Source: Bacteroidales bacterium
GTDB taxonomy: Bacteria > Bacteroidota > Bacteroidia > Bacteroidales > JAFGXI01
DNA: 41,720 bases
Assembly: GCA_026985625.1 (NCBI GenBank)
Contig: JALSQC010000160.1
Coordinates: 1-41,720, forward strand
Reading direction: 5' to 3'
The position numbers and the translations under genes are program-made. Positions 31,892 through 39,817 of this stretch are shown here, piece by piece. Every line of letters starts with the position of its first letter. The first letter of the stretch is position 1. The notes beneath the pieces are model-generated. The model did no database searches, was not told the origin of the DNA, and saw nothing but the letters and a program-made list of their open reading frames with translations.

Positions 31892-32285
31892 TTAATTTAA
31901 ATTTAATTTCTACCGCAGAGCCGTTATTTATAAAATTTAGTTCGTCGGATAAATGTTTTATTAAGAAAATTCCTCTTCCGTCGGGTTTTTCAATATTTTC
32001 GGGTAATGTTGGGTCGGGTATGTTTTTATAGTCAAAACCGTTGCCTTGGTCTTTTATGTAAAATTTTAATGTATTTGAATCAATATTGCATTCGAGACTG
32101 ATAAATTTGTTGTTGTCTAAATTATTACCATGTATTATTGCGTTGTTTACTGCTTCGGTTACCGAAACTAAAACGTTTCCAAATAAATCGTCTTTTATAG
32201 ATAGTTTTTTTGCTATTTCTTCTATAAATTTTTCTACAAGATTAATATTTTCAATATCAGAATTAAATTCTAACCGAGTTTTCAT
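31881..32285 (-). CDS. HATPase_c-type ATP-binding protein (RsbW/SpoIIAB-like anti-sigma serine kinase fold)
   Basis: 134 aa. N-box VTEAVNNAIIHGN, G1 box IKDQGNGF and G2 box GRGIFLIKHL. Its 3' end overlaps the ybeY start by 11 nt. Confidence 0.72.
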   Translation of the reverse strand: MKTRLEFNSDIENINLVEKFIEEIAKKLSIKDDLFGNVLVSVTEAVNNAIIHGNNLDNNKFISLECNIDSNTLKFYIKDQGNGFDYKNIPDPTLPENIEKPDGRGIFLIKHLSDELNFINNGSAVEIKFKLNGN

Positions 32286-32363
32286 TATAATTTAAGTGTT
32301 TATAAATAGTGTATTTTCTTTATACTAAAAAATTTAAATTGTGTTACATTTTTTTATAAAAAA

Positions 32364-32385
32364 AGCAGAATTTTAAAATTCTGCT
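32364..32385 (-). terminator. strong intrinsic terminator ending the psr-yeeE-rhodanese operon
   Basis: Perfect 22-nt palindrome agcagaattttaaaattctgct lying 23 nt past the stop at 32408. On the minus-strand RNA it is followed directly by a run of seven U. Confidence 0.75.
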
Positions 32386-32407
32386 TAATATATTTTATGT
32401 GGATTTT

Positions 32408-32467
32408 TTAACCACAACCTCCTGTAACTTCTTTTTTCTTGCGTTTTATAAGTTTTTTCTTTGGTTT
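32408..32467 (-). repeat. copy 1 of a 60-nt direct repeat encoding the KPKKKLIKRKKKEVTGGCG* tail
   Basis: ttaaccacaacctcctgtaacttcttttttcttgcgttttataagttttttctttggttt. 58/60 identical to copy 2 and 57/60 to copy 3. Confidence 0.95.
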
Positions 32468-33556
32468 TGGCGAAGAGTTGTTAGTATTTGTTGCTGTATT
32501 TATTTTTTTATTGCTTGGTTTTTCTCCTTTAATTAATGGAAAGTCGTGTAATTTTTCGGCTGGTTTAAATCCGTGCCAATGTTCTCGTGATACTAAAACA
32601 TCGTGCATAAAACTATTTGCTCCAAAACCAAGGGTAAATGCTTTATATCCTAATAATCTTAGATATGCTATTGTAAAAGCTGCGTTTTGTCCTGTAAAAC
32701 AATATACTAATATGTTTTTATCAGTTGGTAATGTGTTTAAGAATGTTGTGTCGCTTAAGTCGTGTTTTGGAGTATATTGTATTGCTCCGGGTATATGGCC
32801 TTTTAAATATTTATCTTTTGGCCAATAGTTTATAATATAAAAATTACTGTCGGCAAAAGCTTTATCGGCTTTAACTATTAATTTATAGAATGGTATGTTT
32901 AATGCTTCTTTTGCTCTTTCTTTAAGGATTTCTGCTCCGCATTGTTTTCCGGTTTTTATTTCGGGAAGGTTATATTTTCTTCCTTTGGGATTATTTTTTG
33001 TTTCTAATGCATTTGCATATTTATTTGATATGTTTTTTGACCAATCGTCAAAAGTTCTGTTCCACGAACCCATTCCGTATTTCATAGCATATACATTATT
33101 ATATCCTAGTAATCGCAATATTGATGTTGCGTAACTTGATGATTGTCCGGAATAACAAACTAAAACTATTTTATCGTATATTGCAGGTACTATATTTTTT
33201 TCGAAATAGTTGATGAGATTGTTCATTTTTACATTAACGGCTCCGTTTATATGTCCTTCTACATAATCGTCGTGTAATCGTGTATCTATAACAAAGTAAT
33301 CTGATAGATTTTCGTTTACATCTTCGGCAGAAACCATATTAGGAACTCCTAATGTGTTTATATAATCACCGGTATTTTTTATATACTCCATTAATATCTG
33401 GTTCTCGGGTAATGTTATGGAGTCTTCGTTGATTGTTTTTACATTTAATCCGGGATTATAATAATGTTCGCAACTACTTGTAATAATTGCAAATGATATA
33501 AATACAAATAAAATTTTTATAATTCTTTTCATTTTTGTTATTTTATAAATTAACAA
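32408..33556 (-). CDS. exported tandem-rhodanese lipoprotein with polybasic-GGCG C-terminal tail
   Basis: Lipoprotein signal (...FAIITSSC). Two rhodanese domains each carry an active-site-loop Cys (VLVCYSGQSSS and LVYCFTGQNAA). Ends PKPKKKLIKRKKKEVTGGCG. An alternative start at 33532 (MKRIIKIL) is at least as likely. Confidence 0.85.
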   Translation of the reverse strand: MLIYKITKMKRIIKILFVFISFAIITSSCEHYYNPGLNVKTINEDSITLPENQILMEYIKNTGDYINTLGVPNMVSAEDVNENLSDYFVIDTRLHDDYVEGHINGAVNVKMNNLINYFEKNIVPAIYDKIVLVCYSGQSSSYATSILRLLGYNNVYAMKYGMGSWNRTFDDWSKNISNKYANALETKNNPKGRKYNLPEIKTGKQCGAEILKERAKEALNIPFYKLIVKADKAFADSNFYIINYWPKDKYLKGHIPGAIQYTPKHDLSDTTFLNTLPTDKNILVYCFTGQNAAFTIAYLRLLGYKAFTLGFGANSFMHDVLVSREHWHGFKPAEKLHDFPLIKGEKPSNKKINTATNTNNSSPKPKKKLIKRKKKEVTGGCG

Positions 33557-33576
33557 ATTATTTTTTATTTTTTAAA

Positions 33577-33636
33577 TTATCCACAACCTCCTGTAACTTC
33601 TTTTTTCTTACGTTTTATAAGTTTTTTCTTTGGTTT
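33577..33636 (-). repeat. copy 2 of the 60-nt tail repeat
   Basis: ttatccacaacctcctgtaacttcttttttcttacgttttataagttttttctttggttt. 59/60 identical to copy 3. Confidence 0.95.
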
Positions 33637-34215
33637 AGATGATGTGTTATTATCGGTAGGAACTGTTCCTCCTGCTGTTTCGGCTACAACTTTCGCATAA
33701 TCGTATTTTGGTTTTTCGTCGTTATAAATTCCAGTTTTTATGCCGAAATCGTTTATCATATATTTATTTATAAAATCGAAACCACCTAAAGCTACTTTAA
33801 TATTTTTATAATTAAGTTGTTTTAGCATTAGATATACATCAATGGCTTGTGTTGCATTGTAACCATATATTACATTAATTTTTTTATCTTGATTTAAGAT
33901 GTCAAAATTTTCGTTATTAAAAATATCTTTTGCCGGCACATTAATTGCTGAATCTACATGATTTACTATAAAGTCATGTGGGGTTCTTAAATCTATAAAT
34001 CTGTATGTTTTCATTTTTTCTGGACAATAAAAAATATTTGCCACTTTTTCTACAGGTAATATATCTGTTTTATTAATGTATGTTTTTAATGTTTGTTCCG
34101 GAGATAAAACATATTTTTTACTATTGTCAACTCCACAACTAATCATTAAAACTATTACCGATAGTATTAATATTTTATTTATTATTTTCATTATTTTTAA
34201 TTTTTTATTATACAA
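33577..34215 (-). CDS. exported single-rhodanese-fold lipoprotein lacking the catalytic Cys, with polybasic-GGCG tail
   Basis: Lipoprotein signal (...VLMISC). Rhodanese fold (FIDLRTPHDFIVNHVDSAINVP), but the active-site loop reads VIYGYNATQA with no Cys. Ends SKPKKKLIKRKKKEVTGGCG. Alternative start at 34191. Confidence 0.8.
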   Translation of the reverse strand: MYNKKLKIMKIINKILILSVIVLMISCGVDNSKKYVLSPEQTLKTYINKTDILPVEKVANIFYCPEKMKTYRFIDLRTPHDFIVNHVDSAINVPAKDIFNNENFDILNQDKKINVIYGYNATQAIDVYLMLKQLNYKNIKVALGGFDFINKYMINDFGIKTGIYNDEKPKYDYAKVVAETAGGTVPTDNNTSSKPKKKLIKRKKKEVTGGCG

Positions 34216-34236
34216 TAATATTTAGATTATAAATAA

Positions 34237-34296
34237 TTATCCACAGCCTCCTGTAACTTCTTTTTTCTTACGTTTTATAAGTTTTTTCTTTGGTTT
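34237..34296 (-). repeat. copy 3 of the 60-nt tail repeat
   Basis: ttatccacagcctcctgtaacttcttttttcttacgttttataagttttttctttggttt. Confidence 0.95.
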
Positions 34297-34857
34297 ACTT
34301 GCTTGTTCGTTTCCAGATGACACTGTGCTTCCTCCTCCAAAATAGAAACTTGCTCCTTTTCTAAATTCGTATAAGTCTTCTTGTTTTCTATCCCATACAA
34401 TGGGGTTGTATTTTGGCCGTAATATGTTGTCAACCCAAGCATTTAATCCTCCGTCCATAATATAAATATTTTTATATCCTAAACGTGTTAAAATCATCCA
34501 TGCTACATCAGAGTTTGAGCTTCCGTTAGAAAAAATTACCGTGTTATATACATCTTGGTCAAAATAATCTAAGTTTTCCTTTTTTAATAAATCTTTTAAA
34601 GGAATATTAATTGCTCCTTTTAGTGTAAATTTGTTGTATTCGTCGGCAGTTCTTATGTCTATTAGTTGCAACGATGGGTCTTTTGATATTATTGCTTTTG
34701 CAACATCTTCGGTAGTATAAAATCTTGTTCTTTGTATTAATTTTTGCTGTAGTTCGTGAGGCGAAACTTTTGTGTTGTCATTATTGTTGTTTGACATTAA
34801 CAACCATATGCCTGTAATAAGCATTAACCCAATAATAAATTTATCTAGATTTTTCAT
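34237..34857 (-). CDS. membrane-anchored or exported rhodanese-fold protein lacking the catalytic Cys, with polybasic-GGCG tail
   Basis: N-terminal hydrophobic anchor FIIGLMLITGIWLLM. Rhodanese fold (LIDIRTADEYNKFTLKGAINIP), but the active-site loop reads VIFSNGSSNS. The only Cys in the whole protein is in the terminal GGCG. Confidence 0.8.
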   Translation of the reverse strand: MKNLDKFIIGLMLITGIWLLMSNNNNDNTKVSPHELQQKLIQRTRFYTTEDVAKAIISKDPSLQLIDIRTADEYNKFTLKGAINIPLKDLLKKENLDYFDQDVYNTVIFSNGSSNSDVAWMILTRLGYKNIYIMDGGLNAWVDNILRPKYNPIVWDRKQEDLYEFRKGASFYFGGGSTVSSGNEQASKPKKKLIKRKKKEVTGGCG

Positions 34858-34869
34858 TTGTTTATAATT

Positions 34870-35490
34870 TTATAGTCCGAGTTCTTCTATTTTTTCAACA
34901 GGTTTTTTTTCGTTTACTCTTTTTTGTATTTTATCAACAACTATAAAAGCAATTATTGCAATTATGAGAACGATAAAAATAAATAGTTCGTTAGACATTC
35001 CTAATTTTTCGGCAATATTTGCTTTTCCTAAACCTCCTTTTGAGCGTAAATTTTGAAATAGGGATTCGTATGTGAAAGCATATCCAAATATACCTATAAA
35101 TACACCTCCAACAAATGCTATTCCGTCAATTTTTCCTGTTGATGCCGCACAAATACTTGTACCGGGGCAAAATCCTCCGAGAATAAATCCTAATCCCATT
35201 ACTATACCTGCTATTAAAGTAGGTATCCAAAATGTTTTTGGATAAAATGTTAGGTTAATATCTATTAATCCGTAGCTGTCCATTAAAAATAATCCTATAG
35301 CACCTGTTAAAGCAGCTGTAAAGAATACTTTTAGAACAACAAAATCATAACCATAAAAAACACCTGCTAATTTTCTGGTATTAGTAAATCCTCCTGCTTC
35401 TAATCCTATACCAAAACCTATACCTATAAATATAGCAATAAATAGGTTTAAAGGATCTGAAATTAATTCTTGTGGAAATAATGGTCCCAT
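34870..35490 (-). CDS. YeeE/YedE-family sulfur-compound transporter, half-size subunit
   Basis: 206 aa polytopic membrane protein with the conserved LGGFCPGTSICAAS motif of the YeeE/YedE family. Confidence 0.82.
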   Translation of the reverse strand: MGPLFPQELISDPLNLFIAIFIGIGFGIGLEAGGFTNTRKLAGVFYGYDFVVLKVFFTAALTGAIGLFLMDSYGLIDINLTFYPKTFWIPTLIAGIVMGLGFILGGFCPGTSICAASTGKIDGIAFVGGVFIGIFGYAFTYESLFQNLRSKGGLGKANIAEKLGMSNELFIFIVLIIAIIAFIVVDKIQKRVNEKKPVEKIEELGL

Positions 35491-35504
35491 AATTTTTTAT
35501 TTTT

Positions 35505-36023
35505 TTAAATCCATAATTTTCTAAAAAAATATGCAAATGCATATCCTCCGCCAAATACTGCGGCTAATCCAATGTATCCCGATAAGGCGTTAACCGCCAT
35601 TCCGGACATAACTAATCCTGAGGTACAACCTCTCCCTAATTGAGAGCCTATTCCCCATAAAATACCTCCTATAATAGCAGCTATTATTCTGGTTTTGTTT
35701 GTAATTTTTGGCGATTTTCCTACTTTAAAATTAAGTCTACCAAAGTATGCTGCCGATAAAATTGCACCAAAAATAACTCCTATTATTTCGAATATTAACC
35801 AAGAGTTTAGTGGCGATTTTCCTTCGGATACTAATGGAGAGCAGTAAGCCGAATTAAGGGCATAATTATGATTTACACCATTAATTGTAGCAACTACTAC
35901 TTTTTTAAATGCTCCACTTCCGCCTAAACCTTCTCCCGAAAAATAATATGCGGCTATTAGCATTAAGCCTATTATAAAACCGGCTAAATACGGATTCATA
36001 TATTTATTACTTCTATCTTTCAT
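35505..36023 (-). CDS. YeeE/YedE-family sulfur-compound transporter, half-size subunit
   Basis: 172 aa polytopic membrane protein with the conserved GSQLGRGCTSGLVMSG motif. Confidence 0.82.
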   Translation of the reverse strand: MKDRSNKYMNPYLAGFIIGLMLIAAYYFSGEGLGGSGAFKKVVVATINGVNHNYALNSAYCSPLVSEGKSPLNSWLIFEIIGVIFGAILSAAYFGRLNFKVGKSPKITNKTRIIAAIIGGILWGIGSQLGRGCTSGLVMSGMAVNALSGYIGLAAVFGGGYAFAYFFRKLWI

Positions 36024-36036
36024 AATTTTTATAATT

Positions 36037-37032
36037 TTAGTATAAATATCTTGTCAATTGACCTGCCTCAACCATAATAAATCTAAATACCAAGCCTCCT
36101 AATAGTATTAAAAAGGCCGGAACAGCAATAGGTATTTTGTAGCCAAATAATTCCATAAGTTCTAAAAGAGCAGGTAATACTAATCCTATTCCTACAAAAA
36201 ATCCCCAGAATACAGCTGTAAATTCTCCTCCAAGGAATAATGCGGCGGCTTCTTGTTGAACTTCGGAACTTGCTAAATATCCCATAAACATGTGTATTAT
36301 AAAAAATAGCTCTATTGCTACTAGCATTAAATCTATTTTACTAAATGATATTTTCTCGAAATGGTCGCGAGCCATCCACATAATAACTGCTACGCCTGTT
36401 GATACTCCAGATACTAAGAAAAGTGGTCCTAATATAGATGTATTCCATAATGGTCTTGCATTAAATGCTGATAGTAATATTCCTGTATAAACTCCTAATA
36501 TTATTGATAATAATAATAGTATCCAAGCCATAATTTTTTGGTATTTTCTTGCTATTTTAATTATCCATTTTATTATGTGACATTTACCAATAATAATTTT
36601 ATCAACCCATTTTAAAAATTTTGTTATTATTTTACATTTACCATCAAAATAATCTATTATATCGTCAAGGTATAGTAATGGCCAAATGATTGATAACGGG
36701 GTTACTATACCTAGCGTCCAAGCTCCCCAAGACATTGGCGATTCAAATCGTATTGTTGTGTATAATTGCCAAAAGAATTGGGTGTGTTTTAAATCTAAAA
36801 GCAAGGCTAATAGTCCTATAATAATAGCAATTGGAGCAATAATAGGGGATATTTTAACTGCAACATTATATTTATCGGTTTTACCTGTTATAAAAAAGTA
36901 TGTTGCAAAAAATATTAATCCGGCAGCAAGCCCTCCTAAAAATAAATACAATGGTATTTGCCAATGCCATATATGCAAAACCGGGTCTATGTTTGGTATG
37001 TTTCTACCGCTTACAAAAAGTTCTTCTTTCAT
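36037..37032 (-). CDS. nrfD: NrfD/PsrC-family molybdoenzyme membrane-anchor (quinol-oxidising) subunit
   Basis: 331 aa with ~8 hydrophobic helices. N-terminal WHWQIPLYLFLGGLAAGL is typical of NrfD/PsrC. Sits immediately downstream of the FeS subunit. Confidence 0.85.
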   Translation of the reverse strand: MKEELFVSGRNIPNIDPVLHIWHWQIPLYLFLGGLAAGLIFFATYFFITGKTDKYNVAVKISPIIAPIAIIIGLLALLLDLKHTQFFWQLYTTIRFESPMSWGAWTLGIVTPLSIIWPLLYLDDIIDYFDGKCKIITKFLKWVDKIIIGKCHIIKWIIKIARKYQKIMAWILLLLSIILGVYTGILLSAFNARPLWNTSILGPLFLVSGVSTGVAVIMWMARDHFEKISFSKIDLMLVAIELFFIIHMFMGYLASSEVQQEAAALFLGGEFTAVFWGFFVGIGLVLPALLELMELFGYKIPIAVPAFLILLGGLVFRFIMVEAGQLTRYLY

Positions 37033-37043
37033 TATTCTTTATT

Positions 37044-37577
37044 TTATATTAAAAAATAAACTTGTGGTTTTGTTCCTGCTTCAGGAGCATTAACTTTCCA
37101 TTTTCTTGATTTCAATAATTTTGATACCGGAGAATTTGGATCGTCTAAATCGCCAAAAGTTAAACATCTGGTAGGACAAACCGATACACATGCCGTGTCT
37201 TGTCCTTTTGCCACACGATGGTCGCAGAATGTACATTTATCAACATATCCTTCTGGGTGGAAATATCTTGCTTCGTATGGACATGCTTGAATACATGCTC
37301 CACAGCCAATACATTCGTCGTGAGTAACTTTAACTATTCCTCCCTCGATTATATGGCTAGCTCCTGTAGGACATGTTCTTACACATGGAGCGTCGCCACA
37401 ATGGTTGCATCTTTCGGATCGAATTTCGAGATGTAGTTCCGGATATGTTCCGTCTACATTTTCTACAATCCAATCTCTACAGTAACCATGAGGGACATTA
37501 TTTTCTGTTTGACAAGCAACTACACAGTCGCTACATCCGACACATTTTTTTGTGTCCATTGCCATTGCGTATCTCAT
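37044..37577 (-). CDS. 4Fe-4S ferredoxin-type electron-transfer subunit (PsrB/PhsB-like)
   Basis: Four Cys clusters: CVGCSDCVVAC, CNHCGDAPCVRTC, CIGCGACIQAC and CTFCDHR...CVSVC. Its start overlaps the catalytic subunit's stop by 4 nt (37574-37577). Confidence 0.9.
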   Translation of the reverse strand: MRYAMAMDTKKCVGCSDCVVACQTENNVPHGYCRDWIVENVDGTYPELHLEIRSERCNHCGDAPCVRTCPTGASHIIEGGIVKVTHDECIGCGACIQACPYEARYFHPEGYVDKCTFCDHRVAKGQDTACVSVCPTRCLTFGDLDDPNSPVSKLLKSRKWKVNAPEAGTKPQVYFLI

Positions 37578-39817
37578 GCTTTAACCTCCTCGTTATTTGG
37601 GTTATCAGTTAATATTTCAACAAAATTTGATCTCATTCCTGTGCCTCCTGTAACATCGTCTATTAATACTTTTGTTATTAATTCCCAGTCGGCAGCTCCT
37701 TTTCCGTAAGCTGTTTTCATTTGTTTAGCTTTATTTCCAAAACCATGAGGTAAGTAGACTGAATCGAATCTTATTCTTTCGGTAATTCTAACTTTAACAG
37801 GATATGAAGAAACAACTCCGTCTTGATTTCTTAACCACACTTCTTGTCCCGGTTCTAAATATAATAATTTTGCTACTTTTGGGTTTACCCATAAATGATT
37901 TTCGCTTCGTAAATCGTTTAAAAAACGGTTATTTATAGTTCGTCCGAATGTATGCATTGGAACTCTACCGTAAATAAGTCTATAAAAACCGTCCTCGGGT
38001 TGTGGATGTTCTTTAAATACAGGCATAGGGTCGTATCCCATCGCATCTAAGTCGGTAGAGTATAATTCTATTTTTCCGGTATTTGTGTTAAAGAAGTATT
38101 CTTCTCCGTCTTCTAAAAACAAGGCTTCTTCTCTATCGAAAGTTTTAACTCCTATTTTTTTCATTTCTTCTAACGATGTTCCTACTTGTTTTAGTTGCCA
38201 ATCGAGAACTTCTTCTAAATCTTTCCAAGGATAATATTTTTCTAATCCTAATCTTAATCCTATTTCTCTTGCAATCCACCATCCCGGTTTTGATTCGTAC
38301 ATAGGTTTAACGGCCGGCATTCTTAATGCAATTTGCGGTTCTTTATGACGTGTTGTTCTTAAATAATCGTATCGTTCTAAATAGGTGCATTCGGGTAAAA
38401 CAACATCGGCATATCCTGTAATTTCTGATGGCATAGTATCTACAACAACTATAAATTCCATATTTTGGATAGCTTTTTTTGTTTTTTCTTGATCAGGTAT
38501 GGATTGTATTAAGTTTGTTGCGGTAATATACCATGCTTTTATTTTGTGTTTTAATTTGGTATCGGGTAATGATGCGTCTATTAATATATTTGTAACTCCT
38601 GTAAAAGCTCCTTTGTATTTATCTTTTGTAATATCTTTCCATGTCCATTTTGGTTCGGGGTAATGTGGTGTAGGATAATGTGGCACATGTATTTTCTCAG
38701 GAAAATAATATCCTCCTTTTTTTCCCCAAGAACCAAGTAGTGCGTTTAATATTGCTATTGCTCTTGTGCGTTGAGTATCGTCGCCATACCAAGCAGTATG
38801 TCGTCCAGGATGAATTGCTACTGCAGGCGAAGCATTTGCCATTTCTCTTGCAGTTTTTCTAATTAAATCGGGAGCTATATCTGTTTTGGTAAAAGCCCAT
38901 TCGGGTGTATATTTTTTTACATGATTTTTTAAATCGTCAAAGCCATAGGTGTATTGTTCTACATATTTTTTGTCGTATAAATCTTCATAAATTAGAACGT
39001 GCATCCATGCTAAAAGTAAAGCTAAATCTGTTGCAGGTTTAATTGGTAACCAATATTTTGATTTTGATGCAGCAGTTGAGAAACGAGGGTCAACAGTAAT
39101 AACTGTCATTCCTCTGTCGATACCTATTGACATATCTTGCACTATACCATTGTGCATGTTTTCTCCAATGTGACTACCTATTAATACTAAACATTTAGAG
39201 TTTCTAAGGTCGGTTGGTTCCGGAGAACCTATTCCTGCTCCGTATGTATTTATAAATCCTGCTTCTCGTGCTCCTAAACATTGAGCAATTGCTGGTTCTG
39301 CCGTGTTGTCGGAACCAAAAGATTTAAATAAATGTTCAAAGTGATGTGCTGTTGTTCCGTGGTCTAATAAGGCAATGCTCTCATAACCATATTTTTCGCC
39401 AACTTCTTTGGTTTTTTTTGCTACGTAATCTAAAGCTTCGTCCCAAGACACTTCTTTAAAAGTTTGGCTACCTGGTGCTCCTACTCGCATTAAAGGTTTT
39501 TTTAATCGGTCTTTATCGTATAACATTCCTACTCCTCCGGTACCTCTTGGGCATAATCTGCCGGTTGAATGTAAATCGCTATCGTTTCCTATTATTTTTT
39601 GAACTTTGCCATCTGCACCTTTATAAGCAAAAGCTGCACAGTTCCAAAAACAGACTTCGCAAATTGTTGGAGTTCGTTCTGCTTTTGATTCATCTATAGG
39701 AGTTTTTTCTTTTGGCAAAAAACTTGGAACCCAGTCCAAAACAGGATTTGCCAATGCTAAACCTCCTACGCCAATAGCCGAAATTTTAATAAAATCTCTT
39801 CTTGTTTTCTTTTTCAT
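37574..39817 (-). CDS. Tat-exported molybdopterin (bis-MGD) oxidoreductase catalytic subunit, polysulfide/thiosulfate-reductase-like (PsrA/PhsA-like)
   Basis: Twin-arginine signal KKKTRRDFIKISAIGVGGLALA. N-terminal FS0 cluster motif CEVCFWNC...CPRG. 747 aa. The substrate cannot be assigned by eye. Confidence 0.88.
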   Translation of the reverse strand: MKKKTRRDFIKISAIGVGGLALANPVLDWVPSFLPKEKTPIDESKAERTPTICEVCFWNCAAFAYKGADGKVQKIIGNDSDLHSTGRLCPRGTGGVGMLYDKDRLKKPLMRVGAPGSQTFKEVSWDEALDYVAKKTKEVGEKYGYESIALLDHGTTAHHFEHLFKSFGSDNTAEPAIAQCLGAREAGFINTYGAGIGSPEPTDLRNSKCLVLIGSHIGENMHNGIVQDMSIGIDRGMTVITVDPRFSTAASKSKYWLPIKPATDLALLLAWMHVLIYEDLYDKKYVEQYTYGFDDLKNHVKKYTPEWAFTKTDIAPDLIRKTAREMANASPAVAIHPGRHTAWYGDDTQRTRAIAILNALLGSWGKKGGYYFPEKIHVPHYPTPHYPEPKWTWKDITKDKYKGAFTGVTNILIDASLPDTKLKHKIKAWYITATNLIQSIPDQEKTKKAIQNMEFIVVVDTMPSEITGYADVVLPECTYLERYDYLRTTRHKEPQIALRMPAVKPMYESKPGWWIAREIGLRLGLEKYYPWKDLEEVLDWQLKQVGTSLEEMKKIGVKTFDREEALFLEDGEEYFFNTNTGKIELYSTDLDAMGYDPMPVFKEHPQPEDGFYRLIYGRVPMHTFGRTINNRFLNDLRSENHLWVNPKVAKLLYLEPGQEVWLRNQDGVVSSYPVKVRITERIRFDSVYLPHGFGNKAKQMKTAYGKGAADWELITKVLIDDVTGGTGMRSNFVEILTDNPNNEEVKA

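Follow-up and report, generated by a model that had tools for sequence, protein, structure and literature searches.

Probable gene conversion confined to the C-terminal tails of three ancient rhodanese paralogs in a sulfur-metabolism operon of Bacteroidales

Why do three genes, the bodies of which share only 31-34% of their amino acids, end in almost the same 60 nt? The question is raised by rhdA, rhdB and rhdC, members of a minus-strand operon of eight genes which also includes Phs/Psr-type enzyme genes and a YeeE/YedE pair, and which lies in a 41,720-nt stretch of the genome of a Bacteroidales bacterium (contig JALSQC010000160.1, assembly GCA_026985625.1; the whole stretch analyzed is called the window hereafter). 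The PF00581 Rhodanese domain is found in all three rhd proteins, and all three have the same C-terminal end, KPKKKLIKRKKKEVTGGCG (tail consensus peptide KPKKKxxKRKKKEVxGGCG). The explanation we favour, with a probability of about 0.7 judged from sequence comparisons, is that the homologous tails of ancient paralogs have undergone recent short-tract gene conversion, in long-term concert with selection.

The positions of the three copies, and the changes private to each, are given in Table 1. When the final 57 coding nt are taken together with the stop codon, the copies of rhdA and rhdB are identical at 58/60 positions, those of rhdB and rhdC at 59/60, those of rhdA and rhdC at 57/60. The three inter-copy differences, CGC/CGT at an Arg codon, GGT/GGC and GGT/GGA at Gly codons, are all synonymous. 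Identity is bounded by the Lys-Pro boundary on one side and by the stop codon on the other, the 60 nt upstream of the tails matching at just 23-26/60 positions between copies. The repeats are direct, with start-to-start distances of 1169 and 660 nt. The initial annotation had reported these identities, the synonymous nature of the differences, the sharp Lys-Pro edge and the direct spacing, and was right in every detail; the weak similarity that it noted among the upstream rhodanese bodies corresponds to the 31-34% amino acid identity measured here. Exactly three copies were found in the window by a 56-nt pattern search, zero being expected in shuffles, and the same three are the only ones present at the DNA level in the 2.2-Mb genome. 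A genome-wide census of the ends of open reading frames (ORFs) gave the same picture, ORFs ending in GGCx being these three only.

The genes which carry the tails are old. In a tree of the bodies, built with tails removed on rows from 26 related operons, the 26 rhdC rows form a clade with support 99, and the 17 rhdA rows a clade with support 100. The gene order YeeE halves-rhdC-rhdB-rhdA is found in 7/7 other genomes of the same family that were searched, as well as in numerous further families belonging to the order and in metagenome contigs. Since ortholog clades extend across lineages, the triplication predates these lineages. A recent whole-gene duplication, which would leave flanks as conserved as the tails and which already looked untrue at first reading, is excluded by the old, independent ortholog clades of the bodies, next to the poorly matching flanks described above. 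The closest homologs in the protein collection are 62-70% identical, the only identical locus residing on another contig of the same organism.

Tails of the 26 related operons (60 tails) were compared over the 14 residues up to the Cys. Paralogs of the same genome share 10.8/14 residues, tails of different genomes 6.6/14, with no difference between orthologs and non-orthologs, and the best match is a same-genome paralog for 47 of the 60 tails. Tails which co-vary within genomes and differ between genomes had been predicted as the signature of gene conversion, and this is the pattern observed. Variants typical of a lineage are repeated within a genome, GGGGGGGC three times in L034, EEEEGGC and KKKKGVGGGC twice each in L032 and L035, respectively, while (Q/E)VSGGC occurs in all three L040 tails, and GGGGCD in all three L051 tails. 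Sister genomes differ as sets: EVEGGCG is found three times in L044, EVAGGCG three times in L046, and a second pair is similarly distinguished by KAVKRKKK (three times in L048) and KVVKRKKK (three times in L049). With the window excluded, identical residues are encoded by the same codon within genomes in 327 instances vs. 272 expected (ratio 1.20; fraction 0.60 vs. 0.50). Between genomes, same-codon use is 0.48 vs. 0.48 expected (ratio 1.00-1.01), for orthologs and non-orthologs alike. Since the excess is confined to within-genome pairs, it points to a DNA ancestry younger than speciation, that is, to gene conversion. A second case at the nucleotide level is provided by the sister genomes L048 and L049, in which the rhdC and rhdB tails match at 56 and 54/60 positions, more than the orthologous tails of the two genomes do (51 and 49/60), the bodies being 81-85% identical. 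In 7/10 genomes with three tails, similarity is highest for the rhdC-rhdB pair, the members of which are also the closest neighbours (about 660 nt), and this fits distance-dependent conversion. An operon may have one, two or three tailed genes, rhdC being the only tailed gene in L033 (G025:C30), and the rhdA-like lipoprotein of L031 (G032:C4) being tailless. This variation is compatible with the loss of cassettes by recombination between tails, and is no proof of it.

The copies might in principle have become alike with no DNA copying at all, as the result of purifying selection on the peptide and of convergent codon choice in an AT-rich genome. Lys codons are strongly biased here (96% AAA), and 12-13/19 codon matches per tail pair are expected from bias alone. 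The observed matches are 16-18/19, and include minority codons common to the tails (CTT 0.18, CGT 0.24, CCA 0.33). The probability that three independent tails differ at no more than three codons is 1.2e-4 with plain codon usage, and falls to about 2e-6 when the codon habit of the genome in lysine runs is modelled. Runs of KKK contain AAG in 75% of the cases genome-wide, vs. 4% AAG for lone Lys; sharing of rare AAG codons, usual as they are within lysine runs, counts only in part as evidence of copying. Synonymous divergence (dS) is 0.09-0.30 in the tails and 1.0-1.1 in the bodies, nonsynonymous divergence (dN) 0 and 0.8-1.0, respectively (NG86 method), and a maximal-segment permutation test gave p<0.001 for every tail pair. 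The claim of the initial annotation that peptide selection alone does not account for the codon identity is sustained by these probabilities, as by the comparison of dS in tails and bodies which it suggested. Convergent codon choice is made highly unlikely also by the relatives, because equally conserved peptides are found there with codon matching at background, and matching between genomes is at expectation. A constraint on the 60 nt as nucleic acid (mRNA structure, binding site for a small RNA or a protein, signal for translational pausing or coupling at each cistron end) would likewise keep codons fixed. The repeat occurs at three cistron ends, is purine-rich, with AGGAGG generated by the Gly-Gly codons, and the lysine runs of the tails never use AAA AAA AAA (0 of the 37 GGCx-ending tails listed by codon). 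Yet A9 homopolymers are avoided genome-wide, and not specifically in tails, and between genomes codon choice at identical residues does not depart from codon usage, therefore revealing no position-specific nucleotide constraint. A scan of the interval 32000-35200 returned zero Rfam family matches, and the folding energies of each tail with its flanks resemble those of shuffles (z 0.5, 0.9 and -0.06). Together with the codon data, these results lend no support to a structured cis-regulatory RNA element, and the mRNA element suggested early on was rejected; a nucleic-acid constraint of any kind is extremely doubtful.

That the repeat was made or homogenized by the metagenome assembler is a next to negligible possibility. 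The genome is a fragmented metagenome-assembled one (425 contigs), but the copies differ at three sites, reading frames are all intact, the same architecture is found in relatives, and an independent ENA contig of the same organism (L043) carries the identical locus, with 0 mismatches across 6191 nt. Moreover, the repeat is shorter (60 nt) than the assembler k-mer (k141) reported in the name of that contig, and a collapse artefact is therefore unlikely. The tail repeat is real. Modular spread of a tail cassette, another suggestion of the initial annotation, would imply that one tail replaced the unrelated 3' ends of the other genes, and of rhdB especially, by illegitimate or micro-homology recombination. 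Two endings, each with a near-terminal Cys, were found among rhdB homologs (P0002-P0120), acidic DFDEECPDLN in 77/120 and polybasic KRKKK(E/A)VxGGCG in 41/120, the acidic type making up essentially one clade. The spread of a cassette is suggested by the finding that rhdB ends in DFDEECPDLN, and not in the GGCG tail, in seven other genomes of the same family, and that CPDLN is also the ending found with the most similar rhdB body (70% identity), the window's rhdB being nested in that clade in the free tree. The nesting is, however, weakly supported (Shimodaira-Hasegawa-like approximate likelihood ratio test 84), and a constrained tree, in which all CPDLN proteins form one clade without the window's rhdB, fits at least as well (log-likelihood +14, approximately unbiased test p 0.69). 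Because GGC-tailed rhdB is widespread, being found in many other families, and the constrained tree is acceptable, ancestral retention suffices. All three orthogroups having homologous tails in other families, a recent cassette spread is not needed to explain the data, and we consider it unlikely.

According to the gene conversion model, the homologous C-terminal tails of rhdC, rhdB and rhdA would already have been present in each gene when the order began to diversify. The recent homogenization would be the outcome of ectopic, non-reciprocal conversion between closely spaced direct repeats, the tract being confined to about 57 nt already alike, and one or two synonymous changes would have accumulated per copy thereafter. 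Conversions would recur over time and, along with selection for uniform tails, would keep the tails concerted within a genome, while bodies evolve as separate orthologs. Uniformity is likely to be favoured because the three tails would be one and the same functional element, serviced by common periplasmic partners, candidates being the molybdoenzyme of the Psr/Phs type, the YeeE-like channel and rhdA, through its catalytic domains. In the genome analyzed, conversion most likely spanned the whole tail and is recent.

Several data weigh against gene conversion, or restrict its role. In most relatives the tails are near background in synonymous similarity, and much of the long-term co-variation could therefore reflect parallel selection instead of conversion. 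In L026, the same codons are used at 10 of 18 identical residues vs. 10.8 expected, and the L044 and L046 pair shares an E-to-A change in all three tails, ortholog-specific flanking codons being kept. Within-genome pairs are non-independent, so that a pooled z of about 5 exaggerates the significance. Conversion is still the most likely reading, deduced as it is from sequences of relatives outside the genus. The functional reading of the tail given below, as a sulfur-carrying arm, rests on motif analogy, a cysteine census and disorder prediction. Ongoing conversion had been one of the explanations put forward at the outset. The within-genome excess supports conversion, not its continuity: many relatives with near-identical peptides exhibit background codon matching, and conversion is therefore episodic. 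For the same reason, peptide selection alone can hold tails alike for long, and selection for uniform tails must also act, either fixing conversions or favouring parallel changes.

The features of the operon are listed in Table 1. The catalytic subunit is a molybdopterin protein of the Phs/Psr type with an N-terminal twin-arginine (RR) motif; its best NCBIfam match is thiosulfate reductase PhsA, with 502 bits, a score under the cut-off of that model. Signal peptides are of the lipoprotein type in rhdA and rhdB, a signal anchor in rhdC. The 374-aa form of rhdA begins with MKRII, a longer TTG-started ORF reaching position 33556, and the 204-aa form of rhdB with MKIINK. The catalytic Cys of the two rhdA domains is kept in 15/17 and 16/17 orthologs, respectively. 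The corresponding position is occupied by Ser or Thr in 26/26 rhdC orthologs, mostly by Gly in rhdB, and because of this Gly the rhodanese domain of rhdB is probably inactive. The hairpin downstream from rhdA is likely the intrinsic terminator of the operon.

Table 1. Coordinates of the operon genes, of the tail repeats and of the hairpin in the window
Feature	Coordinates	Strand	Description
PsrC/NrfD-like membrane subunit, 4Fe-4S subunit and catalytic subunit	36037..39817	-	first operon genes
Split YeeE/YedE-type sulfur-transport pair	34870..36023	-	172 and 206 aa
rhdC	34237..34857	-	N-terminal membrane helix, rhodanese fold, Ser at catalytic position; sole Cys in tail
Repeat copy 3	34237..34296	-	last 19 codons and stop of rhdC; one private synonymous change (GGC)
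rhdB	33577..34191	-	lipoprotein, one rhodanese-fold domain with Gly at catalytic position, followed by linker and tail
Repeat copy 2	33577..33636	-	last 19 codons and stop of rhdB; equals the three-copy consensus
rhdA	32408..33532	-	lipoprotein, two rhodanese domains, both with catalytic Cys (CYSGQ, CFTGQ), linker, tail
Repeat copy 1	32408..32467	-	last 19 codons and stop of rhdA, KPKKKLIKRKKKEVTGGCG*; two private synonymous changes (CGC, terminal GGT)
Hairpin and T-run	32356..32393	-	just 3' of the rhdA stop; near-perfect hairpin, AAGCAGAATTTT/AAAATTCTGCTT

What the tails may be for is suggested by their composition. GGC followed by no or one residue is the end of 119/120 rhdC homologs, and the tail Cys is the only Cys in 103/120 of them. 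Among the rhdC homologs P0121-P0240, the Cys is followed by G in 85 proteins, by S in 20, by E in 6 and by D in 5, and is the last residue in three; P0157 lost the tip by an apparent frame change after KKKEVE. In the AlphaFold2 model of rhdC, residues 177-206 have a predicted local distance difference test score below about 50, and are predicted to be disordered, beside a confident rhodanese fold which follows the N-terminal helix. The tail, in which a linker predicted to be disordered leads to a polybasic stretch and to an invariant tip, Gly-Gly-Cys, probably works, by analogy, as a SoxY-like sulfur-carrying arm. If the three arms had one partner in common, the advantage of uniform tails would be accounted for. 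It is conceivable, though we lean against it, that interchangeable arms of this type hold the sulfur of polysulfide or thiosulfate in protein-bound form and offer it to a single docking site, and are kept matched by gene conversion as the site drifts; the catalytic funnel of the Psr/Phs enzyme and the YeeE-like pore would be candidate sites. In three genomes of other families, L040 (G018:C30), L041 (G030:C85) and L042 (G039:C48), rhdC forms an in-frame fusion with the second YeeE/YedE half. The fusion proteins are 402-426 aa long, with rhdC at the C-terminus of the second half, and still end in GGC. They argue that the tailed pseudo-rhodanese and the YeeE-like channel are physically associated.

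Linked paralogs are known to undergo short-tract conversion, target and persistence being what is new here. The restriction of conversion to one 19-residue module of ancient paralogs, order-wide, is a strong evolutionary pointer to function, and suggests that the need to match a common partner lies with the tail rather than with the rhodanese body. Attention is thereby drawn to an undescribed Cys-tipped arm, carried by rhodanese scaffolds which are probably inactive, in the Psr/Phs-YeeE operons of anaerobic members of the Bacteroidota, and the locus provides a clean natural example for telling selection-driven from conversion-driven co-variation of paralogs. If the docking-site hypothesis holds true, the operon would represent a case in which carrier proteins bring the substrate to a respiratory sulfur reductase, and in which a genetic mechanism for the co-evolution of several carriers is built in.

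SoxY has a GGCGG C-terminal swinging arm, the Cys of which carries sulfur intermediates (PMC6067878; PMC5336275, citing Sauve et al. 2007). As in SoxY, rhd tails are periplasmic flexible peptides with a glycine-flanked invariant Cys at the extreme C-terminus, encoded by a sulfur-metabolism operon. In contrast, the scaffold is a rhodanese fold, the tails end in GGC or in GGC plus one residue after a polybasic stretch, and the operon setting is that of a reductive Psr/Phs-type enzyme. Sox models gave no match among the operon proteins, and the locus holds Psr/Phs, YeeE and rhodanese genes only, without SoxZ or Sox enzymes. Membership of the rhd proteins in the SoxY family was rejected, as the fold differs, SoxZ is missing and PF00581 is the only domain found. 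Sud is a periplasmic transferase of polysulfide sulfur which serves the polysulfide reductase of Wolinella. The rhd proteins resemble Sud in being periplasmic, in having a rhodanese fold, and in accompanying an enzyme of the PsrABC type, which Sud supplies with sulfur. Unlike Sud, which has the canonical Cys in the rhodanese loop, rhdB and rhdC lack this residue and have the Cys on the C-terminal tail, and tailed paralogs are three in number. Nothing relevant was found in the open-access literature on Psr-operon rhodaneses that have a Cys tail at the C-terminus.

Segmental ectopic conversion is exemplified by tufA/tufB, and by the conserved 5' and 3' ends of the bab/sab outer-membrane protein genes of Helicobacter. 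There, as in the rhd operon, the segments of paralogs from one genome resemble each other more than orthologs from different genomes do, the excess of synonymous identity is confined to a tract, and the genes are closely linked. The rhd tract differs in measuring only about 57 nt at the extreme 3' end of the genes, and in joining paralogs so ancient (31-34% identity) that nothing else is left to recombine. It differs, too, because the pattern persists order-wide and coincides with one functional peptide module.

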